Source of the DNA: Escherichia coli O127:H6 str. E2348/69
GTDB lineage: Bacteria > Pseudomonadota > Gammaproteobacteria > Enterobacterales > Enterobacteriaceae
Direction: 5' to 3' (one strand)
DNA: 64,000 nucleotides
NCBI RefSeq assembly: GCF_000026545.1
Contig: NC_011601.1
The first letter of the stretch is position 1. Each line of letters begins with the position of its first letter. The notes under the pieces are model-generated. The model did no database searches. It was not told the origin of the DNA and saw nothing but the letters and a program-made list of their open reading frames with translations. A program made the position numbers and the translations under genes. Positions 7,316 through 57,758 of this stretch are shown piece after piece.

Positions 7316-8743
7316 TTATTTCGTGTTTTTCGACGACGGTAATTCAATGCGGAAACAAACATCTTGCCCGCTCTCGTCGACCAGATACAGTTCCCCTTGC
7401 ATACGGCGAATACAATCCCTGGCAATGCTTAATCCCAGACCGCTGCCCTTCACCGCCCCTTTTCGCTGGTGGCTTCCCTGAAAAAAGGGTTCGAAGATCA
7501 TGGCGCGTTCCTCTTGCGGAATGGGCGTGCCTGTATTGATGACATCAATATAAACCCGCGCACCATGTAAACTGCTGCGAAGGCAAATGTTACCGGATTC
7601 AGCCCCGTAGTGCACCGCATTGGAGTAAAGATTATCCAGTACGCTCATCAGCAGCATTGGCTCCGCCAGGCAAGCTGTTGCTTTGAGATCAACGTCGGTA
7701 TGCATCATTTTAGCCCGTGCGGGCAGGCTATGAGCAGAAACCACTGTCTCCACCAGCGGTGCTAACTCAACATTCTCCAGTTCCACCGCACTGTCCGCCT
7801 GTTTACGGTTGTAATCAAGCAGTTGTTCGATCAGCTTTTGCAAATTGCGGCTGCTGCTATCAAGAATGCTCACCACCTCTTTTTGCTCTGGCGTAAGCGG
7901 CCCGACAACCTGATCAGCCAGTAATTCAGTGCCCTCGCGCATACTCGCCAGTGGCGTTTTTAATTCATGAGATAAATGTCTTAAAAATTGATGGCGTTGG
8001 GATTCCAGCCATGACAGGCGCTCACTTAACCAAAGAATACGTTGCCCAACCGAGCGTAACTCGCTCGGTCCACTGAACGAGACGCTATTGCCCAGAGAAC
8101 GCCCTTCCCCCAGCCGGTTGATCATGCGCTCGATATTTTTCACCGGACCGATAATCATCCTCGTGAAAAGCAGTACCATCACCAGACTCACCAGAAATAG
8201 CACCAGCGATTGCCAACCAAAATATTGCCCACGTTCGGCGATTTCACGCTGAAGTTGCTGCCCACGAGAGAACACTACTGTGCGCGTGGCCTGCACCATT
8301 TCGGTATTGGCACTGGCAAAGGCTTCCAGACGCGCGGCGGCAGCAGCATCGGGACCGCTGTTGTTACACTGAAGTTGAGCCAGATTGTTCAAATCCTGAC
8401 GTAATGCCTGGTAGAGTTTATCGTCCGGCAGCACGCCTGCGTGGGCATCGAGCATTTCGCTGTAACGCTTGCGCTGGCTTTGATAAACCTTCGCAAGCGT
8501 AGGGTCGTCCAGCACGCAGTACTGACGATAGCTGCGCTCCATCTCCAGTGCCGCGTTGGTCATCGCTTCACTGCGCCGGGCATCAATAAGCGTAGTGCGG
8601 TTAACCAGCGCCGCCTGATCGCTAAGTGCATTCAGGCTTTGCCAGGCTTGCCATGCCAGCACCAACAGGGGCAGCAGAATCAGCAAAAATGCCAGCATTA
8701 CCAGTTGTCGTAATGAGCGGGGAAAAACGGGCCAGCGTTTCAA
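7316..8743 (-). CDS. glrK: Sensor histidine kinase GlrK (475 aa), TTG start
   Basis: ORF track 7316..8806; HisKA H-box (HELKTPL) and HATPase motifs; the 475 aa product starting (M)KRWPVFPRSL requires the TTG at 8741-8743. Confidence 0.93.
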   Translation of the reverse strand: MKRWPVFPRSLRQLVMLAFLLILLPLLVLAWQAWQSLNALSDQAALVNRTTLIDARRSEAMTNAALEMERSYRQYCVLDDPTLAKVYQSQRKRYSEMLDAHAGVLPDDKLYQALRQDLNNLAQLQCNNSGPDAAAAARLEAFASANTEMVQATRTVVFSRGQQLQREIAERGQYFGWQSLVLFLVSLVMVLLFTRMIIGPVKNIERMINRLGEGRSLGNSVSFSGPSELRSVGQRILWLSERLSWLESQRHQFLRHLSHELKTPLASMREGTELLADQVVGPLTPEQKEVVSILDSSSRNLQKLIEQLLDYNRKQADSAVELENVELAPLVETVVSAHSLPARAKMMHTDVDLKATACLAEPMLLMSVLDNLYSNAVHYGAESGNICLRSSLHGARVYIDVINTGTPIPQEERAMIFEPFFQGSHQRKGAVKGSGLGLSIARDCIRRMQGELYLVDESGQDVCFRIELPSSKNTK

Positions 8744-8797
8744 GGCGTTACTCTCGTCAGACGCGAATAGCCTGATGCTAACCGAGGGGAAGTTCAG

Positions 8798-8985
8798 ATA
8801 CAACAAAGCCGGGAATTACCCGGCTTTGTTACGGAATAAGGCGGTGCCTAACTCGACGTTTCGCCCGATGGTTGATATAGCTACGCTGATATCAGAAGTT
8901 GGACGGCAGGCACCTTGTTGTGCGTCATTCGAATTTTATGTAGCACGTCCCGAAGGGGCTGACATAAGTCGGTGAATGAGCCACT
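8798..8985 (-). ncRNA. glmY: Small RNA GlmY
   Basis: Reverse complement reads AGTGGCTCATTCACCGACTTATGTCAGCCCCTTCGGGACGTGCTACATAAAATTCGAATGACGCACAACAAGGTGCC..., ending in hairpin AAAGCCGGGTAATTCCCGGCTTTGTT; recognised as glmY by sequence and by position upstream of glrK. Confidence 0.9.
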
Positions 8986-9318: not shown

Positions 9319-12300
9319 TTACCCCAACTGCTTACGTGCATTGCGGAAAATGCGCATCCATGGGCCATCCTCGCCCCAGTTTTCCGGATGCCAGGAGTTG
9401 CTGACAGTACGGAAAACACGTTCCGGGTGCGGCATCATAATGGTGACTCGACCACTTTCAGTCGTGACTGCCGTAATACCGTTCGGTGAACCGTTCGGGT
9501 TAGCCGGGTAGGTTTCAGTGACTTTGCCGAAGTTATCGACATAGCGCAGTGCCACCAGCCCTTTGCTTTCCAGTGCCGCCAGATGCGCCGCATCGCGCAC
9601 TTCAACGCGCCCTTCACCGTGAGAGACAGCAATCGGCATCTGCGAGCCCACCATCCCCTGCAACAGCAGCGACGGGCTTTGGGTTACTTCTACCAGACTG
9701 AAACGCGCTTCAAAGCGATCGGAGGTGTTACGCACAAAACGTGGCCACAACTCGCTACCTGGGATCAGTTCACGCAGATTAGACATCATCTGGCAACCGT
9801 TACATACCCCCAGCGCCAGCGTTTGCGGACGATGGAAGAAGGTTGCAAACTCATCGCGTACACGGTCATTGAACAGGATAGACTTCGCCCAACCTTCACC
9901 AGCGCCCAGCACATCACCGTAGGAAAAACCACCGCACGCGACCAGGGCGTGGAAACCCTCCAGGCCCGTGCGTCCAGCCAGCAGATCGCTCATATGCACG
10001 TCGATAGCATCGAAGCCTGCACGGTGGAAAGCTGCCGCCATTTCAACATGCGAGTTCACGCCCTGCTCACGCAGCACGGCAACTTTCGGGCGCGCGCCAG
10101 TGGCAATAAACGGTGCTGCCACATCTTCGTTGATATCGAACGACAGTTTTACATTCAGGCCCGGATCGGCGTCGTTTGATTTCGCCTGGTGCTCCTGGTC
10201 AGCACACTCCGGGTTGTCACGCAGGCGCTGCATCTGCCAGGTAGTTTCTGCCCACCAGACACGCAACGTGGTGCGGCTTTCGCTAAATACAGTCTGCCCG
10301 TTGGCGGTAATCACAAAACGGTCACCGGAAACCGCCTGCCCAACATAATGGACGCAATCAGCAAGCCCATGCTGTGCCAGTACCGCTTCAACGGCTTCAC
10401 GGTCAGCGGCTCGCACCTGAATCACCGCACCCAGTTCTTCGCTAAACAATGCAGCCAGGCGATCGTCACCCAGAGTGGCGATATCCGCGTCAATGCCACA
10501 ATGACCAGCAAAGGCCATTTCCGCCAGCGTTACCAGCAGGCCGCCATCAGAGCGGTCGTGATACGCCAGCAGCTTACGCTGTGCAACCAGCGCCTGAATC
10601 GCGTCATAGAAGCCTTTCAGTTGGGCAACATCGCGTACATCTGCCGGTTTGTCGCCAAGCTGACGATAAACCTGCGCCAGTGCCGTTGCGCCCAGCGCGT
10701 TATTGCCTTTGCCCAAATCAATCAGCAACAGTGCGTTATCTTCGGTAGAAAGCTGCGGCGTAATGGTGTGACGTACATCTTCCACGCGGGCAAATGCGGA
10801 AATCACCAGCGACAACGGCGACGTCATTTCGCGCTCTTCGTTACCTTCCTGCCAGCGGGTTTTCATCGACATAGAGTCTTTACCCACCGGTATCGTCAGG
10901 CCCAGCGCCGGACAAAGTTCTTCGCCCACAGCTTTAACGGCTTCATACAGGCCCGCATCTTCACCAGGGTGGCCTGCCGCCGCCATCCAGTTGGCGGAAA
11001 GTTTAATGCGTTTGATATCGCCAATTTGTGTTGCGGCGATGTTGGTTAGCGCTTCACCGACTGCCAGACGGGCAGAAGCGGCGAAATCCAGCAGCGCAAC
11101 TGGCGCACGTTCGCCAATTGCCATCGCTTCGCCATAGTAGCTGTCGAGGCTGGCGGTAGTGACCGCGCAGTTAGCGACCGGCACCTGCCACGGCCCCACC
11201 ATCTGATCGCGCGCCACCATGCCGGTTACGCTGCGGTCACCGATGGTCACCAGGAAAGTTTTCTCCGCCACGGTCGGCAGATGCAGCACGCGTTTCACCG
11301 CGTCAGCGATGGTGATCCCTTCACGGGCCAGCGCGTCGCCTTTCGCTTTCAGCGTTTGTACATCGCGGGTCATCTTCGGCGTTTTGCCAAGCAGTACGTC
11401 CAGCGGTAGATCAATCGGCTGATTATCAAAATGACGATCGTGCAAAGAAAGATGCAGTTCTTCGGTCGCTTCACCAATCACCGCGTAGGGTGCGCGCTCA
11501 CGCTTACACAGTTCGTCAAACAGCGGTAACTGATCGGCAGCAACCGCCAGCACGTAGCGTTCCTGGGATTCGTTACACCAGATTTCCAGCGGGCTCATGC
11601 CCGGTTCGTCGCTCAGGATATCGCGCAGTTCAAATTTACCGCCGCGCCCGCCGTCGCTCACCAGTTCCGGCATGGCGTTAGAAAGACCGCCTGCGCCAAC
11701 GTCGTGGATAAACAGGATTGGGTTGGCATCACCAAGCTGCCAGCAACGGTCGATCACTTCCTGGCAGCGACGCTCCATCTCCGGGTTGTCGCGCTGTACG
11801 GAAGCAAAGTCGAGGTCGGCATCAGACTGACCAGATGCCATGGAAGACGCCGCGCCGCCGCCAAGACCGATGTTCATTGCCGGGCCGCCGAGAACGACCA
11901 GCTTCGCACCAACGTTGATCTCGCCTTTTTGTACGTGATCGGCGCGAATGTTGCCGATCCCACCCGCCAGCATGATCGGTTTGTGATAACCGCGCAGCTC
12001 TTCGCCATTGTGGCTGTTCACTTTTTCTTCATAAGTACGGAAGTAGCCGTTCAGTGCCGGACGACCAAATTCGTTGTTAAACGCCGCACCGCCCAGCGGG
12101 CCTTCGGTCATGATGTCCAGCGCGGTAACAATGCGCTCAGGTTTACCGAAATCTTCTTCCCACGGCTGTTCGAAGCCAGGAATTCGCAGGTTGGATACGG
12201 AGAAACCAACCAGACCGGCTTTCGGCTTTGCGCCACGTCCGGTGGCACCTTCATCGCGGATTTCACCGCCGGAACCGGTCGCCGCGCCCGGCCACGGAGA

Positions 12301-13206
12301 AATCGCCGTCGGGTGGTTGTGAGTTTCGACTTTCATCAGAATATGCGCCGGTTCCTGATGGAAATCGTAGCGGCCCGTTTCGTGGTCAGCAAAGTAGCGG
12401 CCCACTTCAGAACCTTCCATTACGGCGGCGTTATCTTTATAAGCAGAGAGAACGTGATCCGGCGTGGTTTCGAAGGTGTTTTTGATCATCTTAAATAGCG
12501 ATTTCGGCTGCTGTTCACCATCGATAACCCAGTCGGCGTTAAAAATTTTGTGGCGGCAGTGCTCGGAATTCGCCTGGGCAAACATATACAGTTCGATGTC
12601 GTTCGGGTTACGACCAAGCTTTGTGAAAGCATCCTGCAAATAGTCAATTTCATCTTCCGCCAGTGCCAGGCCAAGACGCAGGTTAGCGTCGATTAGCGCC
12701 TGACGGCCCTGCCCCAGCAAATCAACGCTGGTGACCGGAGTCGGTTGATGGTGTGCAAACAGCTGCTCTGCATCATCTAAAGCAAAAAAGACCGTTTCCA
12801 TCATGCGGTCGTGCAGTTCAGCGGTAACCTGCTGCCATTGTTCATTGGTCAGCGTACCGGCTTCTATATAGTAAGCCACGCCGCGCTCAAGGCGGTTTAC
12901 CTGTTGCAGCCCGCAGTTATGGGCAATATCGGTCGCTTTCGAAGACCAGGGAGAGATGGTGCCAGGACGCGGGGTCACCAGCAGGAGTTTGCCTTGCGGG
13001 GCGTGGCTGGCGAGTGCCGGGCCATATTTCAGCAGGCGTTCAAGTTGTGCGTGCTCATCATCGTTTAACGGCGCATTGAGGTCAGCAAAATGGACATACT
13101 CGGCGTAAATAGTGTGAACCGGGAGCCTGGCAGCCTGAAAACGTGCCAGCAGTTTGTTGATTCGGAATGCCGACAATGCAGGCGAACCACGCAGAATTTC
13201 CATCAT
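9319..13206 (-). CDS. purL: Phosphoribosylformylglycinamidine synthase (1295 aa)
   Basis: ORF track 9319..13362; start placed at [20 protein letters not shown] giving 1295 aa; C-terminal glutamine amidotransferase domain. Confidence 0.97.
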
Positions 13207-13283
13207 AAGTCTCTCGTCTTCTAAGCTTTCGGTGTACCCAAGGGGGGGGAAACGGGCGTCATTATAAAGAATCTGATGCGCTG

Positions 13284-13299
13284 ACGAAACCGTTTGCGT
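13284..13299 (-). promoter_or_regulatory. PurR operator (pur box) upstream of purL
   Basis: Reverse complement ACGCAAACGGTTTCGT matches the pur-box consensus ACGCAAACGTTTTCGT. Confidence 0.7.
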
Positions 13300-13464
13300 G
13301 GAAATAAAATCACCATCGTGAATTAGCAACGCGTGCCGCCAATGGCTGTAATAAGTTGCCAACTGGCGCAGGTTTACGCAAAATGCCGCTCATTTATGAG
13401 TAAACCTTTCACTATTATTACGTTTTTTCAAGCTGGGACGCGCACGACACAGAGAATTAACTAA

Positions 13465-18179: not shown

Positions 18180-18262
18180 TTTTCGTTGGAATCGTGTGCT
18201 GCACAAAATTAAAGTTAAAAAGTAAAACCCCCGTTCCTTACCAGTTCGGGGGTTTTACTTTA
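18180..18262 (+). ncRNA. ohsC: Candidate antitoxin sRNA OhsC (approximate ends), ending at hairpin aaaacccccg...cgggggtttt plus T-run
   Basis: A 19 nt segment (18186-18204) is an 18/19 direct repeat of 17937-17955 in the shoB 5' UTR, so a plus-strand transcript here is complementary to shoB mRNA; a possible -10 (cataat, about 18170) and an intrinsic terminator at 18226-18262 bracket it. Ends are inferred. Confidence 0.5.
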
Positions 18263-20144: not shown

Positions 20145-21757
<1,613 letters not shown>

Positions 21758-21997
21758 TCAGCACACGAAACAGACCTGATATACATGGCTCGGCTAACTG
21801 CTTCACTGCAGTTTCAGTTTACCGGTATATGGGGACCAACGCTGTTTCGTGTGCCGTGGCAACCTGGAGGTGCCAACCTTAAACTTCGGGGGAATATTCT
21901 ATACACAACGACGGGGGATGTCGTTAGCCACGGGAGATTTATCTCATAAATAATTCACGTTGTCGCCATAACGGCGACAACGTGACGAAGATGGCTA

Positions 21998-22987: not shown

Positions 22988-24787
<1,800 letters not shown>

Positions 24788-24984
24788 AAAGTATGATTAT
24801 TGTGCCTTAATGCCCGGTTAACCAGGCTTTTAGAAGTCGCTGTTCTGAGCTTAACGTCTGTATTAATAGAAACGCCGCATTCTACACTACAACATTGAGG
24901 CGAGGAAATGTTCATACCGTATGGATTGTGGTATCTGGAAACGTCCTCGCATTTGTTATGCAAAATGCAACAAAGCCAGTGAAA

Positions 24985-25464
24985 TCACTGGCTCGCGTCT
25001 TCCGAAGATGTTTCAAATCGCACAAGGCCAGGCGGCAATGCCACGCTTAAGATGATCGGTTGCCATTCAGACCGGGCAGCAAACTTTCGAGAGCAGCCAC
25101 GTGCAATCAGGAATCCACCAACGCCACCGAGAATCGCACCGCATAATGCTGCAATATCTGAAGCAAAGAGTAGCTGAAATAGTGAAGCGATGAGGAATAG
25201 TCCCATCAACGGCGACATATAAACCAGTAATGCGGAGCTAAGCAGGCTGCCTTCGGCGATTCCTAATTCTACTTTTTGCCCCGGCACTAACGGCTCATCA
25301 CAGGGTACGACAATGGTATGCGTGGTTTGCGGGCCAAGTTTATTCAACACGCGGCTACCGCAACCGGCACGTGAAGCGCAGCTGCTGCATGAGGCTTTAA
25401 CATCACAACTGACCAGCGCCTGCCCGTTTTCCCAGGAGACGACGGTAGCCCACTCTTTGATCAT
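24985..25464 (-). CDS. rseC: SoxR-reducing system / sigma-E regulatory protein RseC (159 aa)
   Basis: ORF track 24985..25464; operon position after rseB. Confidence 0.93.
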   Translation of the reverse strand: MIKEWATVVSWENGQALVSCDVKASCSSCASRAGCGSRVLNKLGPQTTHTIVVPCDEPLVPGQKVELGIAEGSLLSSALLVYMSPLMGLFLIASLFQLLFASDIAALCGAILGGVGGFLIARGCSRKFAARSEWQPIILSVALPPGLVRFETSSEDASQ

Positions 25465-26417
25465 TGCGCTGCCCCGAACTTAATATTCTCGGCAATGCGT
25501 TTCGCCGTTTGCGGCGGCAGTTCACCGACAATGGTGATTTCGGCGTTATCACGTACGCTTGTACTGACGGTTCTGCGTCCGGTGCGCAACATCTGATCGG
25601 TGCTCGATGGCGTAGCGCGGTTAACGTTTACCGAAAAGCTGAATAATCCGTCGGAATAGAGACGTGATTCGATAGGCATGTTGTCCATCGTCGGTAGCGG
25701 ACGTCGGCTACTGGAAACTTCGCTAAAACCCTGTGGCAACCAGGTTGGCGTCCAGCTGAATTTAGCTTTTTCACCTACAGGAACAGAAAGCAACGGCGGC
25801 AAATTTGCCTTCGCCAGCGTCTGCATACTGCTGCTGATATCCTGATTGACATTAAAAGCAATCACGCGAAATTGTTCCAGCGTTTCACCATCGCGATCAA
25901 GGAGATCAACCCTCATCGGTAATTTCGATTCGGTGTCCATCCACACGATGTAGCTGTAGCGTGTACCATCTCGGGCAACCACGCGAATAACTTCGCAAAG
26001 ACGATCAGCAATACGCGTGCGCCCGACGGAGATAAAGTCGTAGTAAGGAGAAAGGCGTTTGAAATCGGTATAGATGAGCGATGGCAGAGAATCAACAATG
26101 TAATCGCCATTAAGCGTGAACGGTTCAAGTCCCGGTTCAAAATAGCTGATTTCATTGCCGCGCTGTACCACTTCCCGGCGCGGGCCATCCATTTGCAACA
26201 ATTGTGCAAGAGGACGGTTATCGAGGCGTGCATGTCGATAACGCAGAGACTCAACACCCTGTTTATTGATGCTGATGAATGACAGCTCGTAATTCAGTGA
26301 CTGACTGGCCAGGTTCATCTGCTGTAATAACGCCCCGGACGCGGGAGTGGCCGAGGCGTTAGCAGAGAATAACAGGCTACCTGTCACTAATGACATGGCA
26401 AACCAAAGTTGCTTCAT
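25461..26417 (-). CDS. rseB: Sigma-E regulatory protein RseB (318 aa)
   Basis: ORF track 25461..26417; signal peptide MKQLWFAMSLVTGSLLFSANASA; operon position. Confidence 0.95.
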   Translation of the reverse strand: MKQLWFAMSLVTGSLLFSANASATPASGALLQQMNLASQSLNYELSFISINKQGVESLRYRHARLDNRPLAQLLQMDGPRREVVQRGNEISYFEPGLEPFTLNGDYIVDSLPSLIYTDFKRLSPYYDFISVGRTRIADRLCEVIRVVARDGTRYSYIVWMDTESKLPMRVDLLDRDGETLEQFRVIAFNVNQDISSSMQTLAKANLPPLLSVPVGEKAKFSWTPTWLPQGFSEVSSSRRPLPTMDNMPIESRLYSDGLFSFSVNVNRATPSSTDQMLRTGRRTVSTSVRDNAEITIVGELPPQTAKRIAENIKFGAAQ

Positions 26418-45054: not shown

Positions 45055-45174
45055 ATGCCTGGCAGTTCCCTACTCTCGCATGGGGAGACCCCACACTACC
45101 ATCGGCGCTACGGCGTTTCACTTCTGAGTTCGGCATGGGGTCAGGTGGGACCACCGCGCTAAGGCCGCCAGGCA
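45055..45174 (-). rRNA. rrfG: 5S ribosomal RNA (120 nt)
   Basis: Reverse complement reads TGCCTGGCGGCCTTAGCGCGGTGGTCCCACCTGACCCCATGCCGAACTCAGAAGTGAAACGCCGTAGCGCCGATGGTAGTGTGGGGTCTCCCCATGCGAGAGTAGGGAACTGCCAGGCAT; operon named rrnG by synteny (kgtP/clpB flanks). Confidence 0.97.
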
Positions 45175-45272
45175 AATTCTGTTTTATCAACACGTCACGT
45201 TATGACCTGTCGATTTAATCTGTATCAGGCTGAAAATCTTCTCTCAATCCGCCAAAACATCTTCGGCGTTGT

Positions 45273-48176
<2,904 letters not shown>

Positions 48177-48369
48177 TCACAACCCGAAGATGTTTCTTGC
48201 GATTCATCATCGTGCTGCGAAAATTTGAGAGACTCACGAACAACTCTCGTTGTTCAGTGTTTCAATTTTCAGCTTGATCCAGATTTTTAAAGAGCAAATA
48301 TCTCAAACATCACCCGAAGATGAGTTTTGAGATATTAAGGCAGGTGACTTTCACTCACAAACCAGCAAG

Positions 48370-48445
48370 TGGCGTCCCCTAGGGGATTCGAACCCCTGTT
48401 ACCGCCGTGAAAGGGCGGTGTCCTGGGCCTCTAGACGAAGGGGAC
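48370..48445 (-). tRNA. gltW: tRNA-Glu (UUC) in the 16S-23S spacer
   Basis: Reverse complement GTCCCCTTCGTCTAGAGGCCCAGGACACCGCCCTTTCACGGCGGTAACAGGGGTTCGAATCCCCTAGGGGACGCCA (76 nt, anticodon TTC in the CTTTCAC loop). Confidence 0.95.
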
Positions 48446-48530
48446 GTATCAGTCTGCTTCGCAAGACGCCTTGCTTTTCACTTTCTATCAGACAATCTGT
48501 GTGAGCACTGCAAAGTACGCTTCTTTAAGG

Positions 48531-50072
<1,542 letters not shown>

Positions 50073-50513: not shown

Positions 50514-53087
50514 TTACTGGACGGCGACAATCCGGTCTTCATTAACTTCCAGGCGAATAACTTTACCCGGAACCAATTCACCTGACAGTATTTGCTGTGC
50601 CAACGGGTTTTCGATCTGCTGCTGGATAGCACGTTTCAGAGGACGTGCACCATAGACCGGATCGTAACCGTTCTCGCTCAGCAGTTTCAGCGCCTCGTCA
50701 GAAATGTGGATTTCATAACCACGTTCTTCCAGACGTTTGTACAGACGTTTCAACTGAATCTGCGCAATCGACGCAATGTGCTGTTCACCCAGCGGATGGA
50801 AGACCACCACTTCATCGATACGGTTAATGAATTCCGGACGGAAGTTATGGCTTACCACACCGAGCACCAGCTCTTTCATGTGCGCATAATCCAGTTCACC
50901 GAAGCGTTCCTGAATCAAATCGGAACCGAGGTTAGAGGTCATAATGACAACCGTATTACGGAAGTCGACCGTTCTCCCCTGTCCGTCAGTCAGACGCCCA
51001 TCATCCAGTACCTGCAACAGAATGTTGAAGACATCCGGATGCGCTTTTTCAACTTCATCCAGCAGAATGACGGAATACGGACGACGACGCACCGCTTCGG
51101 TCAGGTAGCCACCTTCTTCATAACCGACATATCCCGGAGGCGCACCAACCAGACGAGACACCGAGTGTTTCTCCATAAACTCGGACATATCGATACGGAC
51201 CATCGCCTCGTCGCTATCAAACATAAAGTTCGCTAGCGCCTTACAAAGCTCAGTTTTCCCCACACCGGTTGGGCCGAGGAACAGGAATGAACCAATCGGG
51301 CGATTTGGATCCGCCAGCCCCGCACGGCTACGACGAATAGCGTTAGATACCGCATCAACCGCTTCGTTCTGACCAATAACGCGATGGTGCAGTTCTTGCT
51401 CCATACGCAGCAGTTTTTCGCGCTCGCTTTCCATCATGCGAGAAACCGGAATCCCCGTCCAACGCGCCAGCACTTCAGCAATTTCGGCATCGGTCACTTT
51501 ATTACGCAACAGACGCATAGTTTTGCCTTCGAGCTGCGTTGCGGCTTCCAGTTGCTTTTCCAGTTCCGGGATTTTGCCGTATTGCAGTTCAGACATCCGC
51601 GCCAGGTCCCCCACACGGCGAGCCTGTTCAATAGCGATTTTCGCCTGTTCCAGTTCCGCTTTAATGGTCTGTGTACCAGAAAGCGATGCTTTCTCTGCTT
51701 TCCACTCTTCTTCTAACTCGGAGTACTGACGTTCTTTGTCGCTCAGTTCTTCGTTGAGCATATCCAGGCGTTTTTTACTGGCTTCATCAGACTCTTTCAT
51801 TAACGCCTGTTGTTCCAGTTTAAGCTGGATGATACGGCGATCGAGTCGGTCGAGTTCTTCTGGTTTTGAGTCAATCTGCATACGAATGCTGGATGCTGCT
51901 TCATCGATCAGGTCGATGGCTTTATCCGGCAGCTGACGGTCAGCAATGTAGCGATGAGACAACGTCGCCGCTGCAACAATTGCCGGGTCAGTAATTTGCA
52001 CATGGTGGTGCAACTCATAACGTTCTTTCAGGCCACGCAGAATAGCAATGGTATCTTCAACAGAAGGCTCGGCAACAAACACTTTCTGGAAACGACGTTC
52101 CAGCGCAGCATCTTTTTCGATGTACTGGCGATATTCGTCAAGCGTCGTGGCACCTACGCAGTGCAATTCACCACGCGCCAGTGCCGGTTTCAGCATGTTT
52201 CCGGCGTCCATTGCGCCATCGGCTTTACCCGCGCCGACCATGGTATGTAATTCGTCGATAAACAGGATGACGTTGCCTTCCTGTTTGGCAAGATCGTTAA
52301 GTACGCCTTTTAAACGTTCTTCAAACTCACCGCGATATTTCGCCCCAGCCACCAGCGCGCCCATATCCAGCGCCAGTACGCGGCGGCCTTTCAACCCTTC
52401 GGGCACTTCGCCGTTGATAATACGCTGCGCCAGACCTTCAACGATGGCAGTTTTACCGACGCCGGGTTCACCAATCAATACCGGGTTATTTTTAGTACGA
52501 CGTTGCAGCACCTGAATGGTACGGCGAATTTCTTCATCACGACCAATCACCGGATCAAGTTTGCCTTGTTCGGCTCGTTCGGTAAGGTCGATGGTATATT
52601 TTTTCAAAGCCTGACGTTGGTCTTCAGCACCCTGATCGTTCACGCTTTCACCTCCACGCATTTGTTCAATCGCTTGAGTAATGTTGGCGGTGGTCGCCCC
52701 TGCTGCTTTCAGGATGTCGGCCAGTGTGCCGCGAGACTCAAGTGCCGCCAGAACGAACAGTTCTGACGAGATAAAGTTATCACCACGTTTTTGCGCCAGC
52801 TTGTCGCAAAGATTAAGAACGCGCACCAGATCCTGTGATGGCTGGACATCACCACCAGTACCTTCAACCTGTGGTAAACGATTTAATGCCTGATTGATAT
52901 CTGTGCGCAACTGGCCAGCATTAATGCCAGCGGATGTTAATAAAGGACTAACCGAACCCCCTTCCTGATTCAGCAGGGCGCTCATTAAATGAAGTGGTTC
53001 GATGAATTGGTTGTCGTGCCCGAGTGCAAGTGATTGGGCATCGGCAAGAGCAAGCTGGAATTTATTAGTAAGACGATCCAGACGCAT
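50514..53087 (-). CDS. clpB: Disaggregase chaperone ClpB (857 aa)
   Basis: ORF track 50514..53099; two AAA+ modules with Walker A ([16 protein letters not shown]); start placed at [18 protein letters not shown] giving 857 aa. Confidence 0.97.
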
Positions 53088-53125
53088 AACTCCTCCCATA
53101 ACGGATCAAAGTTGCTACTGGAGAT

Positions 53126-53155
53126 TAAATGAGGTCATCCCTCAATTATTCAAGG
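53126..53155 (-). promoter_or_regulatory. Sigma-32 heat-shock promoter of clpB (-35 CTTGAA, -10 CCTCATTTA)
   Basis: Reverse complement ccttgaataattgagggatgacctcatttaatc matches sigma-32 consensus TTGAAA-N13-15-CCCCATnT. Confidence 0.75.
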
Positions 53156-53216
53156 TTATTGACCAGATTAATGTGAAAAGAAAATCACGCGTACCGGATC
53201 GTCTTGATTCTTTAGG

Positions 53217-57556: not shown

Positions 57557-57612
57557 GTTGACAGCGTGAAAACAGTACGGGTACTGTACTAAAGTCACTT
57601 AAGGAAACAAAC

Positions 57613-57660
57613 ATGAAACACACACCGTTTTTCTTCGCATTCTTTTTTACCTTCCCCTGA
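57613..57660 (+). CDS. pheL: pheA leader peptide (15 aa, Phe-rich): MKHTPFFFAFFFTFP
   Basis: Small ORF with seven Phe codons directly upstream of pheA; classic attenuation leader. Confidence 0.92.
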   Translation: MKHTPFFFAFFFTFP

Positions 57661-57706
57661 ATGGGAGGCGTTTCGTCGTGTGAAACAGAATGCGAAGACG
57701 AACAAT

Positions 57707-57736
57707 AAGGCCTCCCAAATCGGGGGGCCTTTTTTA
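57707..57736 (+). terminator. pheA attenuator terminator (aaggcctccc-aaatc-ggggggcctt then T6)
   Basis: Hairpin plus T-run between pheL and pheA. Confidence 0.9.
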
Positions 57737-57758
57737 TTGATAACAAAAAGGCAACACT

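Follow-up and report, generated by a model that had tools for sequence, protein, structure and literature searches.

A length-variable poly-C tract at the start of the Escherichia coli purL leader is probably a slippage-prone, nearly neutral repeat

RESULTS

A poly-C tract near the 5' end of the purL leader varies from C5 to C11 among 5,425 complete Escherichia coli genomes, and we read it, with a probability of roughly 0.65, as a slippage-prone, nearly neutral repeat that expanded from a conserved pyrimidine-rich transcript start. We infer both that replication slippage is the cause and that the length changes are nearly neutral; nothing in the evidence gathered shows that the observed changes alter purL expression.

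Position of the tract in the purL leader

In the 64-kb stretch of strain E2348/69 DNA analyzed here (the window), the + strand at 13242-13249 reads a-GGGGGGGG-a, and this G8 on the purL template strand is C8 in the purL sense. Sequence and translation place it 36 to 43 nt 5' of the purL ATG (13206, − strand), as the original prediction had proposed. The purL coding sequence (9319..13206, − strand) specifies phosphoribosylformylglycinamidine synthase, a protein of 1,295 aa whose translation starts MMEILRG, according to the open reading frame list, the translation, and the RefSeq annotation of matching genomes. The tract was also said to lie between a pur box and the purL start, and it does: the PurR operator ACGCAAACGGTTTCGT (purL sense; 13284..13299) covers positions -46 to -31, counted from the inferred start, with an overlap of the -35 region; its + strand 16-mer ACGAAACCGTTTGCGT at 13284-13299 matches exactly the motif that ChIP-chip in K-12 gave for PurR at purL (Cho et al. 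2011, PMC3159470). The purL promoter thus has the organization of a PurR-regulated promoter, with a 16-bp pur box overlapping promoter elements.

A spacer of 17 nt (13283..13267, − strand) separates the pur box from a perfect TATAAT -10 hexamer (13261..13266, − strand), which is the same -10 as that assigned in K-12 as TTTATAAT (PMC2760140) and is followed by a GC-rich discriminator, GACGCCC (13254..13260, − strand). The likely start, G(+1), is at 13253 (− strand), 8 nt past TATAAT; next come a T3 run (13250..13252, − strand; UUU at +2 to +4), the poly-C tract (13242..13249, − strand; +5 to +12 of the mRNA), and the remaining 35 nt of the 5' untranslated region (13207..13241, − strand), which holds a conserved GAAGACGAGAGA at 13221..13210 beside the Shine-Dalgarno region. 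The start site comes from 454 5'-RACE in K-12, which places it at -46 from the ATG (Mendoza-Vargas 2009, PMC2760140 supplementary file 3), and because K-12 carries C7, this position is exactly the G before TTT. The purL transcript therefore appears to start G-UUU-C(n)-UUGGG, an assignment that derives from one high-throughput 5'-RACE entry; the supplement text of Ettwiller 2016 and that of Kim 2012, in the parts available, have no entry for the purL start. With this start the tract is within the leader transcript, as predicted, at +5 to +11 in K-12 and +5 to +12 in E2348/69.

The purL -10 was assigned from sequence and literature rather than from a consensus promoter scan, which missed the purL promoter, probably because a pur box stands where a recognizable -35 would be. 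The scan returned two weak sigma-70-like sites only, both on the + strand and facing mltF (13281-13310 and 13356-13384), the first of which overlaps the pur box. A role for the tract in mltF regulation is unlikely, as the tract precedes both these promoter-like sites and the mltF start, the latter by 216 bp. A G-quadruplex was rejected from the sequence, in which the G run stands alone with no further runs of G3 or more in register, and Rfam has no family matching the purL leader.

The expected gene order is purL-glmY-glrK, and the window is consistent with it. The GlmY sRNA gene (8838-8985, − strand; Rfam RF00128, 147 bits) is directly downstream of purL and upstream of an open reading frame at 7316-8806 (− strand). 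Elsewhere the window has a complete rRNA operon (45057-50072, − strand), with 16S at 48531-50072, a tRNA at 48373-48445, StyR-44 at 48184-48292, 23S at 45273-48176, and 5S at 45057-45172. Further Rfam matches above the gathering threshold are the ohsC antitoxin RNA (18185-18261, +), the rncO leader (21673-21887, −), the AsrC antisense RNA (24669-25500, +), the RyfD sRNA (53068-53206, −), and the Phe leader (57612-57737, +).

Rarity of long G/C runs

The purL-leader tract is the sole G/C run of at least 7 in the 64-kb window, where a base-composition model gives 7.2 (P = 0.006), and the depletion is strong for runs of at least 6, with 8 observed and 27.8 expected under the same model. We note that this model gives about 1.9 runs of at least 8 per 64 kb, under which a single such run is not improbable. 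Published surveys agree that tracts of eight G/C are uncommon in E. coli, in line with the original prediction: Escherichia G/C tracts of at least 6 have a mean length of 6.2 (SD, 0.6) and A/T tracts are about 12 times more common than G/C tracts (PMC8928963), and 8-bp G.C runs in K-12 have been termed outliers (PMC8510543).

Length variation among E. coli strains

Tract length was compared across strains, as the original prediction had suggested, and it is not invariant. The census used exact-match queries, with 36-nt flanks around C5 to C10 (77 to 82 nt), against complete E. coli genomes; at this size the 99% identity band is reached by an exact match only, and with queries longer than 100 nt identity bands cannot resolve one difference and mismatches near the query end are clipped. 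The purL-mltF intergenic locus was found in 5,425 of 5,426 complete genomes, the remaining one having no match to the region, and one genome has it at two places. C7 is the modal allele (4,458 genomes, 82%, K-12 included), followed by C6 (610 genomes, many of them O157:H7 and O121), C8 (252 genomes, 4.6%, including E2348/69, UTI89, NU14, UM146, and HS), C9 (64 genomes, including S88, IHE3034, SE11, SMS-3-5, and ATCC 11775), and C10 (7 genomes, including APEC O1). The extremes are C5 (O157 strain 493/89) and C11 (strain 48), each in one genome, and about 32 of the 5,425 were left unclassed through flank SNPs. The long alleles (C8 to C10) seem to cluster in some ExPEC/APEC strains, whether through adaptation or simply through clonal descent.

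It is very improbable that this variation is a sequencing or assembly artifact of homopolymer miscalling around a tract that is truly invariant. Long-read and 454 assemblies do miscall homopolymers, C5 and C11 each come from a single assembly, and some of the rare alleles (C5, C11, and a few C9 and C10) could be homopolymer errors of long-read assemblies. The other alleles, however, are each common to many genomes (610 C6, 252 C8, and 64 C9), many O157:H7 and O121 genomes have C6, and the early finished references, which we take to be Sanger-sequenced, carry C7 (K-12), C8 (UTI89 and HS), C9 (S88, IHE3034, SE11, and SMS-3-5), or C10 (APEC O1). Metagenome contigs, an independent sample (n = 120; by their names mostly human-gut, short-read-style assemblies), give the same length spectrum, with 4 C6, 98 C7, 14 C8, 3 C9, and 1 T4C8. 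The last is a human-gut contig with coverage below 1x that has TTTT-C8 in place of TTT-C9, which would be explained by a C-to-T substitution where the two runs meet or by an error due to low coverage.

Recurrent change on identical flanks

UTI89 (C8), S88 (C9), and APEC O1 (C10) have identical 380-bp flanks and an identical PurL (WP_000970064.1, 1,295 aa), a protein also present in FDAARGOS_1295 (C8) and APEC 16-1068 (C9). A second flank haplotype carries C6 in O121, C7 in K-12, C9 in SE11, and C11 in strain 48, and C9 is present on three flank haplotypes. Different lengths on identical flanks with the same PurL indicate that the tract changes faster than any amino acid position of the 3.9-kb purL gene. 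The locus therefore behaves as a mononucleotide simple-sequence repeat, being an uninterrupted run of about 7 or more with whole-unit indels confined to the tract and recurrent changes (homoplasy). The predicted length variation is thus strongly borne out, with lengths from C5 to C11 and recurrent changes on identical flanks, and slippage is the likely cause. E. coli indel rates climb exponentially with homopolymer length (PMC8510543), and recurrent changes are thus the expected behavior of such a run; the supplement of a mutation-accumulation study of mismatch repair-deficient strains (Foster 2021) has no entry at the tract coordinates. The slippage rate is likely far below that of classical contingency loci, as the common alleles are each found in hundreds to thousands of genomes (610 for C6).

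Leader folding and promoter geometry

The original prediction also held that length changes could alter leader structure or the spacing between the PurR operator and the ribosome binding site, and neither proposal is supported. When the leader was folded together with 45 nt of the coding sequence, with tracts of C3 to C12, a single predicted minimum free energy structure (-16.1 kcal/mol) was returned throughout, with the tract about 75 to 90% unpaired and the predicted accessibility of the Shine-Dalgarno sequence and AUG the same at every length. The spacing between operator and ribosome binding site is not a meaningful quantity here, as the operator at -46 to -31 acts on initiation and the tract is downstream of the -10 and of +1. 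Because the tract is downstream of all promoter and operator elements, the geometry of operator, -35, -10, and +1 is untouched by its length, and only the 5' untranslated region lengthens, by 1 to 4 nt.

This location also argues against a classical contingency switch, in which phase variation would flip purL between on and off states at a high rate. The tract is a G/C homopolymer beside a promoter and is polymorphic in the population, as such a switch would be, but its place is neither an open reading frame nor a -35/-10 spacer, and it does not separate an activator site from the promoter. Moreover, purL serves a housekeeping biosynthetic function, and its RefSeq annotation is the same 3,888 bp in all strains looked at; when the window and eight strains were aligned over 331 bp, including the first 57 nt of purL, the indels (C5 to C9) all fell inside the tract. 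That C6, C7, and C8 are each common to hundreds to thousands of genomes (610 for C6) speaks against very high switching rates, and we regard a contingency switch as highly unlikely.

Conservation of the transcript start in other species

When one genome per species was scanned for a pur box, 14 to 20 nt, and TAWAAT, 120 loci were returned, 95 of which precede a purL starting M(M)EILRG. Among these 95 Enterobacterales purL promoters, 91 have a T run and then a C run beginning 5 to 10 nt past the -10 (the T run being preceded by G in 86 of these 91), and 84 have at least T3 and at least C3, compared with 0.2% of shuffled leaders. A G-T3-4-C3-6 motif is at the equivalent place in about 90% of the 95, and the distance from -10 to pur box is 17 nt in nearly all Enterobacterales matches. 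Leader length ranges from 37 to 82 nt among the 95 promoters; the middle of the leader is not conserved, in contrast to the T/C block at the 5' end, and a GAAGACGAGAGA block is present no more than 22 nt from the start codon in 88 of 95. Pasteurellaceae purL promoters keep A-TTTT(T) and lack the C run. Each Photorhabdus genome has a second locus with a pur box and TAAAAT that is not upstream of purL, and this is presumably another PurR-type operator.

The C run is 2 to 6 outside Escherichia and 7 in E. albertii. Citrobacter leaders equal the E. coli C7 allele in length but read TTT-CCCCCAC-TTGGG, and the Kluyvera leader, again of the C7 length, has an interrupted pyrimidine block, TTCTCCCCCA. 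These comparisons suggest that the conserved pyrimidine block lost its interruption in Escherichia, giving the present run, which would be mutable for that reason.

The other K-12 pur promoters were also compared. The purT, cvpA-purF, purMN, purHD, and purL promoters all have GC-rich discriminators after the -10, and runs near the likely +1 are present in purMN (GAATTTTATTTTTC) and purHD (GAAAAAT, beginning GAAAAATAAGG), making three pur promoters with purL. A C run is absent from the other K-12 pur promoters inspected, and among them the poly-C is peculiar to purL.

Possible effects on initial transcription

Conservation of the transcript start leaves room for a different reading, in which the tract is a heritable tuning element at initial transcription, and reiterative transcription (UTP/CTP-sensitive) or altered promoter escape sets the productive purL yield, graded by C length. 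With a GUUU-C7-8 start, RNA polymerase would copy two homopolymer blocks while in the initiation complex. A homopolymer of 3 nt or more, situated at the start site or immediately past it, is a requirement of reiterative transcription, which occurs on G/C and T/A templates alike (PMC8812562); purL has T3 at +2 to +4 and C8 at +5 to +12, given the start at -46. The carAB P1 promoter, with the start GUUUGC, is regulated by reiterative transcription (PMC6245113), and purL starts GUUUC, a likeness that is a resemblance only. A start of purine and then T3-5 is conserved in Enterobacterales, as is A-TTTT(T) in Pasteurellaceae; the mid-leader, by contrast, is variable, with leader lengths of 37 to 82 nt. 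The runs near +1 in purMN and purHD point the same way.

Nevertheless, we consider such tuning unlikely, if worth keeping in view. The C run starts at +5 and not +1, UTP-dependent repression of a purine gene is without obvious physiological logic, tolerance of the C6 to C10 alleles suggests weak effects, and literature searches found no report of reiterative transcription for purL. It is more speculative still, and in our judgment improbable, that the purine-T3-5-C(n) start is an NTP-sensing device, in which reiterative transcription or promoter escape dependent on pyrimidine nucleotides would link purine synthesis to the UTP and CTP pools with no protein factor involved, with the E. coli poly-C acting as a heritable tuning knob and C8 to C10 favored in some extraintestinal and avian pathogenic clones.

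DISCUSSION

The history that we favor for this slippage-prone, nearly neutral repeat begins with an ancient G-T3-4-C3-6 pyrimidine block that would have been kept at the purL transcript start across the Enterobacterales. In the Escherichia lineage the block may have become an unbroken C7, Citrobacter having C5AC at equal total leader length, and C7 would be long enough for replication slippage to gain and lose C's repeatedly. The tract is at least 20 nt upstream of the Shine-Dalgarno region, predicted to be unpaired, and downstream of the promoter elements, and this position outside the control elements, together with the predicted unpaired state, would allow the C6 to C10 alleles to be tolerated as a nearly neutral polymorphism rather than a switch. 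There are two counterpoints to neutrality. The deep conservation of the T/C motif implies that the transcript 5' end matters, and length changes could affect expression; and the C7 peak (82%) could come from stabilizing selection rather than shared ancestry.

The tract is a hotspot for recurrent ±1 indels within an intergenic part of the core genome, and false or homoplasious variant calls are to be expected there in E. coli SNP/indel typing and in assembly polishing. It could also be usable as a fast-evolving within-clone marker, as ST95-type strains differ only there across 380 bp. The likely origin of the tract illustrates how a conserved leader motif can become a mutable repeat when a single substitution takes away an interruption (C5AC to C7). 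The C-length alleles are moreover a natural allelic series for testing the effects of the initially transcribed sequence, and if the doubtful tuning reading were true, a purine gene would be added to the few whose promoters are controlled by transcript slippage.

Several known systems share parts of this arrangement. Phase-variable poly-G and poly-C tracts at Neisseria porA and opc and at Bordetella fim occupy the -35/-10 spacer or the stretch from an activator site to the -10, and their length sets promoter strength. The purL tract is like these in being a G/C homopolymer near a promoter that changes length, probably by slippage, but unlike them it lies past +1, where its length has no bearing on promoter geometry. 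The carAB P1 (GUUUGC), pyrBI, codBA, and upp promoters have, as purL does, a +1 purine and, directly after it in the initially transcribed region, a run of three or more T, and purL, carAB, and codBA share a GC-rich discriminator and a PurR box. The purL T run, however, precedes a long C run rather than a G, the gene belongs to a purine and not a pyrimidine pathway, and the likeness is one of sequence. Relative to the PurR-repressed promoters of the pur regulon, purL has the same arrangement of a pur box overlapping the -35, with an operator identical to the published one, and adds the poly-C tract.

Literature searches found no report of this polymorphic locus in the purL leader, but the class to which it belongs is a known one: the tract is a polymorphic mononucleotide repeat of non-coding E. 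coli DNA. Simple-sequence repeats of this kind were reportedly described by Gur-Arie et al. in 2000 and Diamant et al. in 2004. Like those repeats, the purL tract is uninterrupted and intergenic, and its recurrent, whole-unit indels are consistent with slipped-strand mispairing. It differs from typical Escherichia simple-sequence repeats in being of the rarer G/C type and in lying inside the mapped 5' untranslated region of a core metabolic gene.
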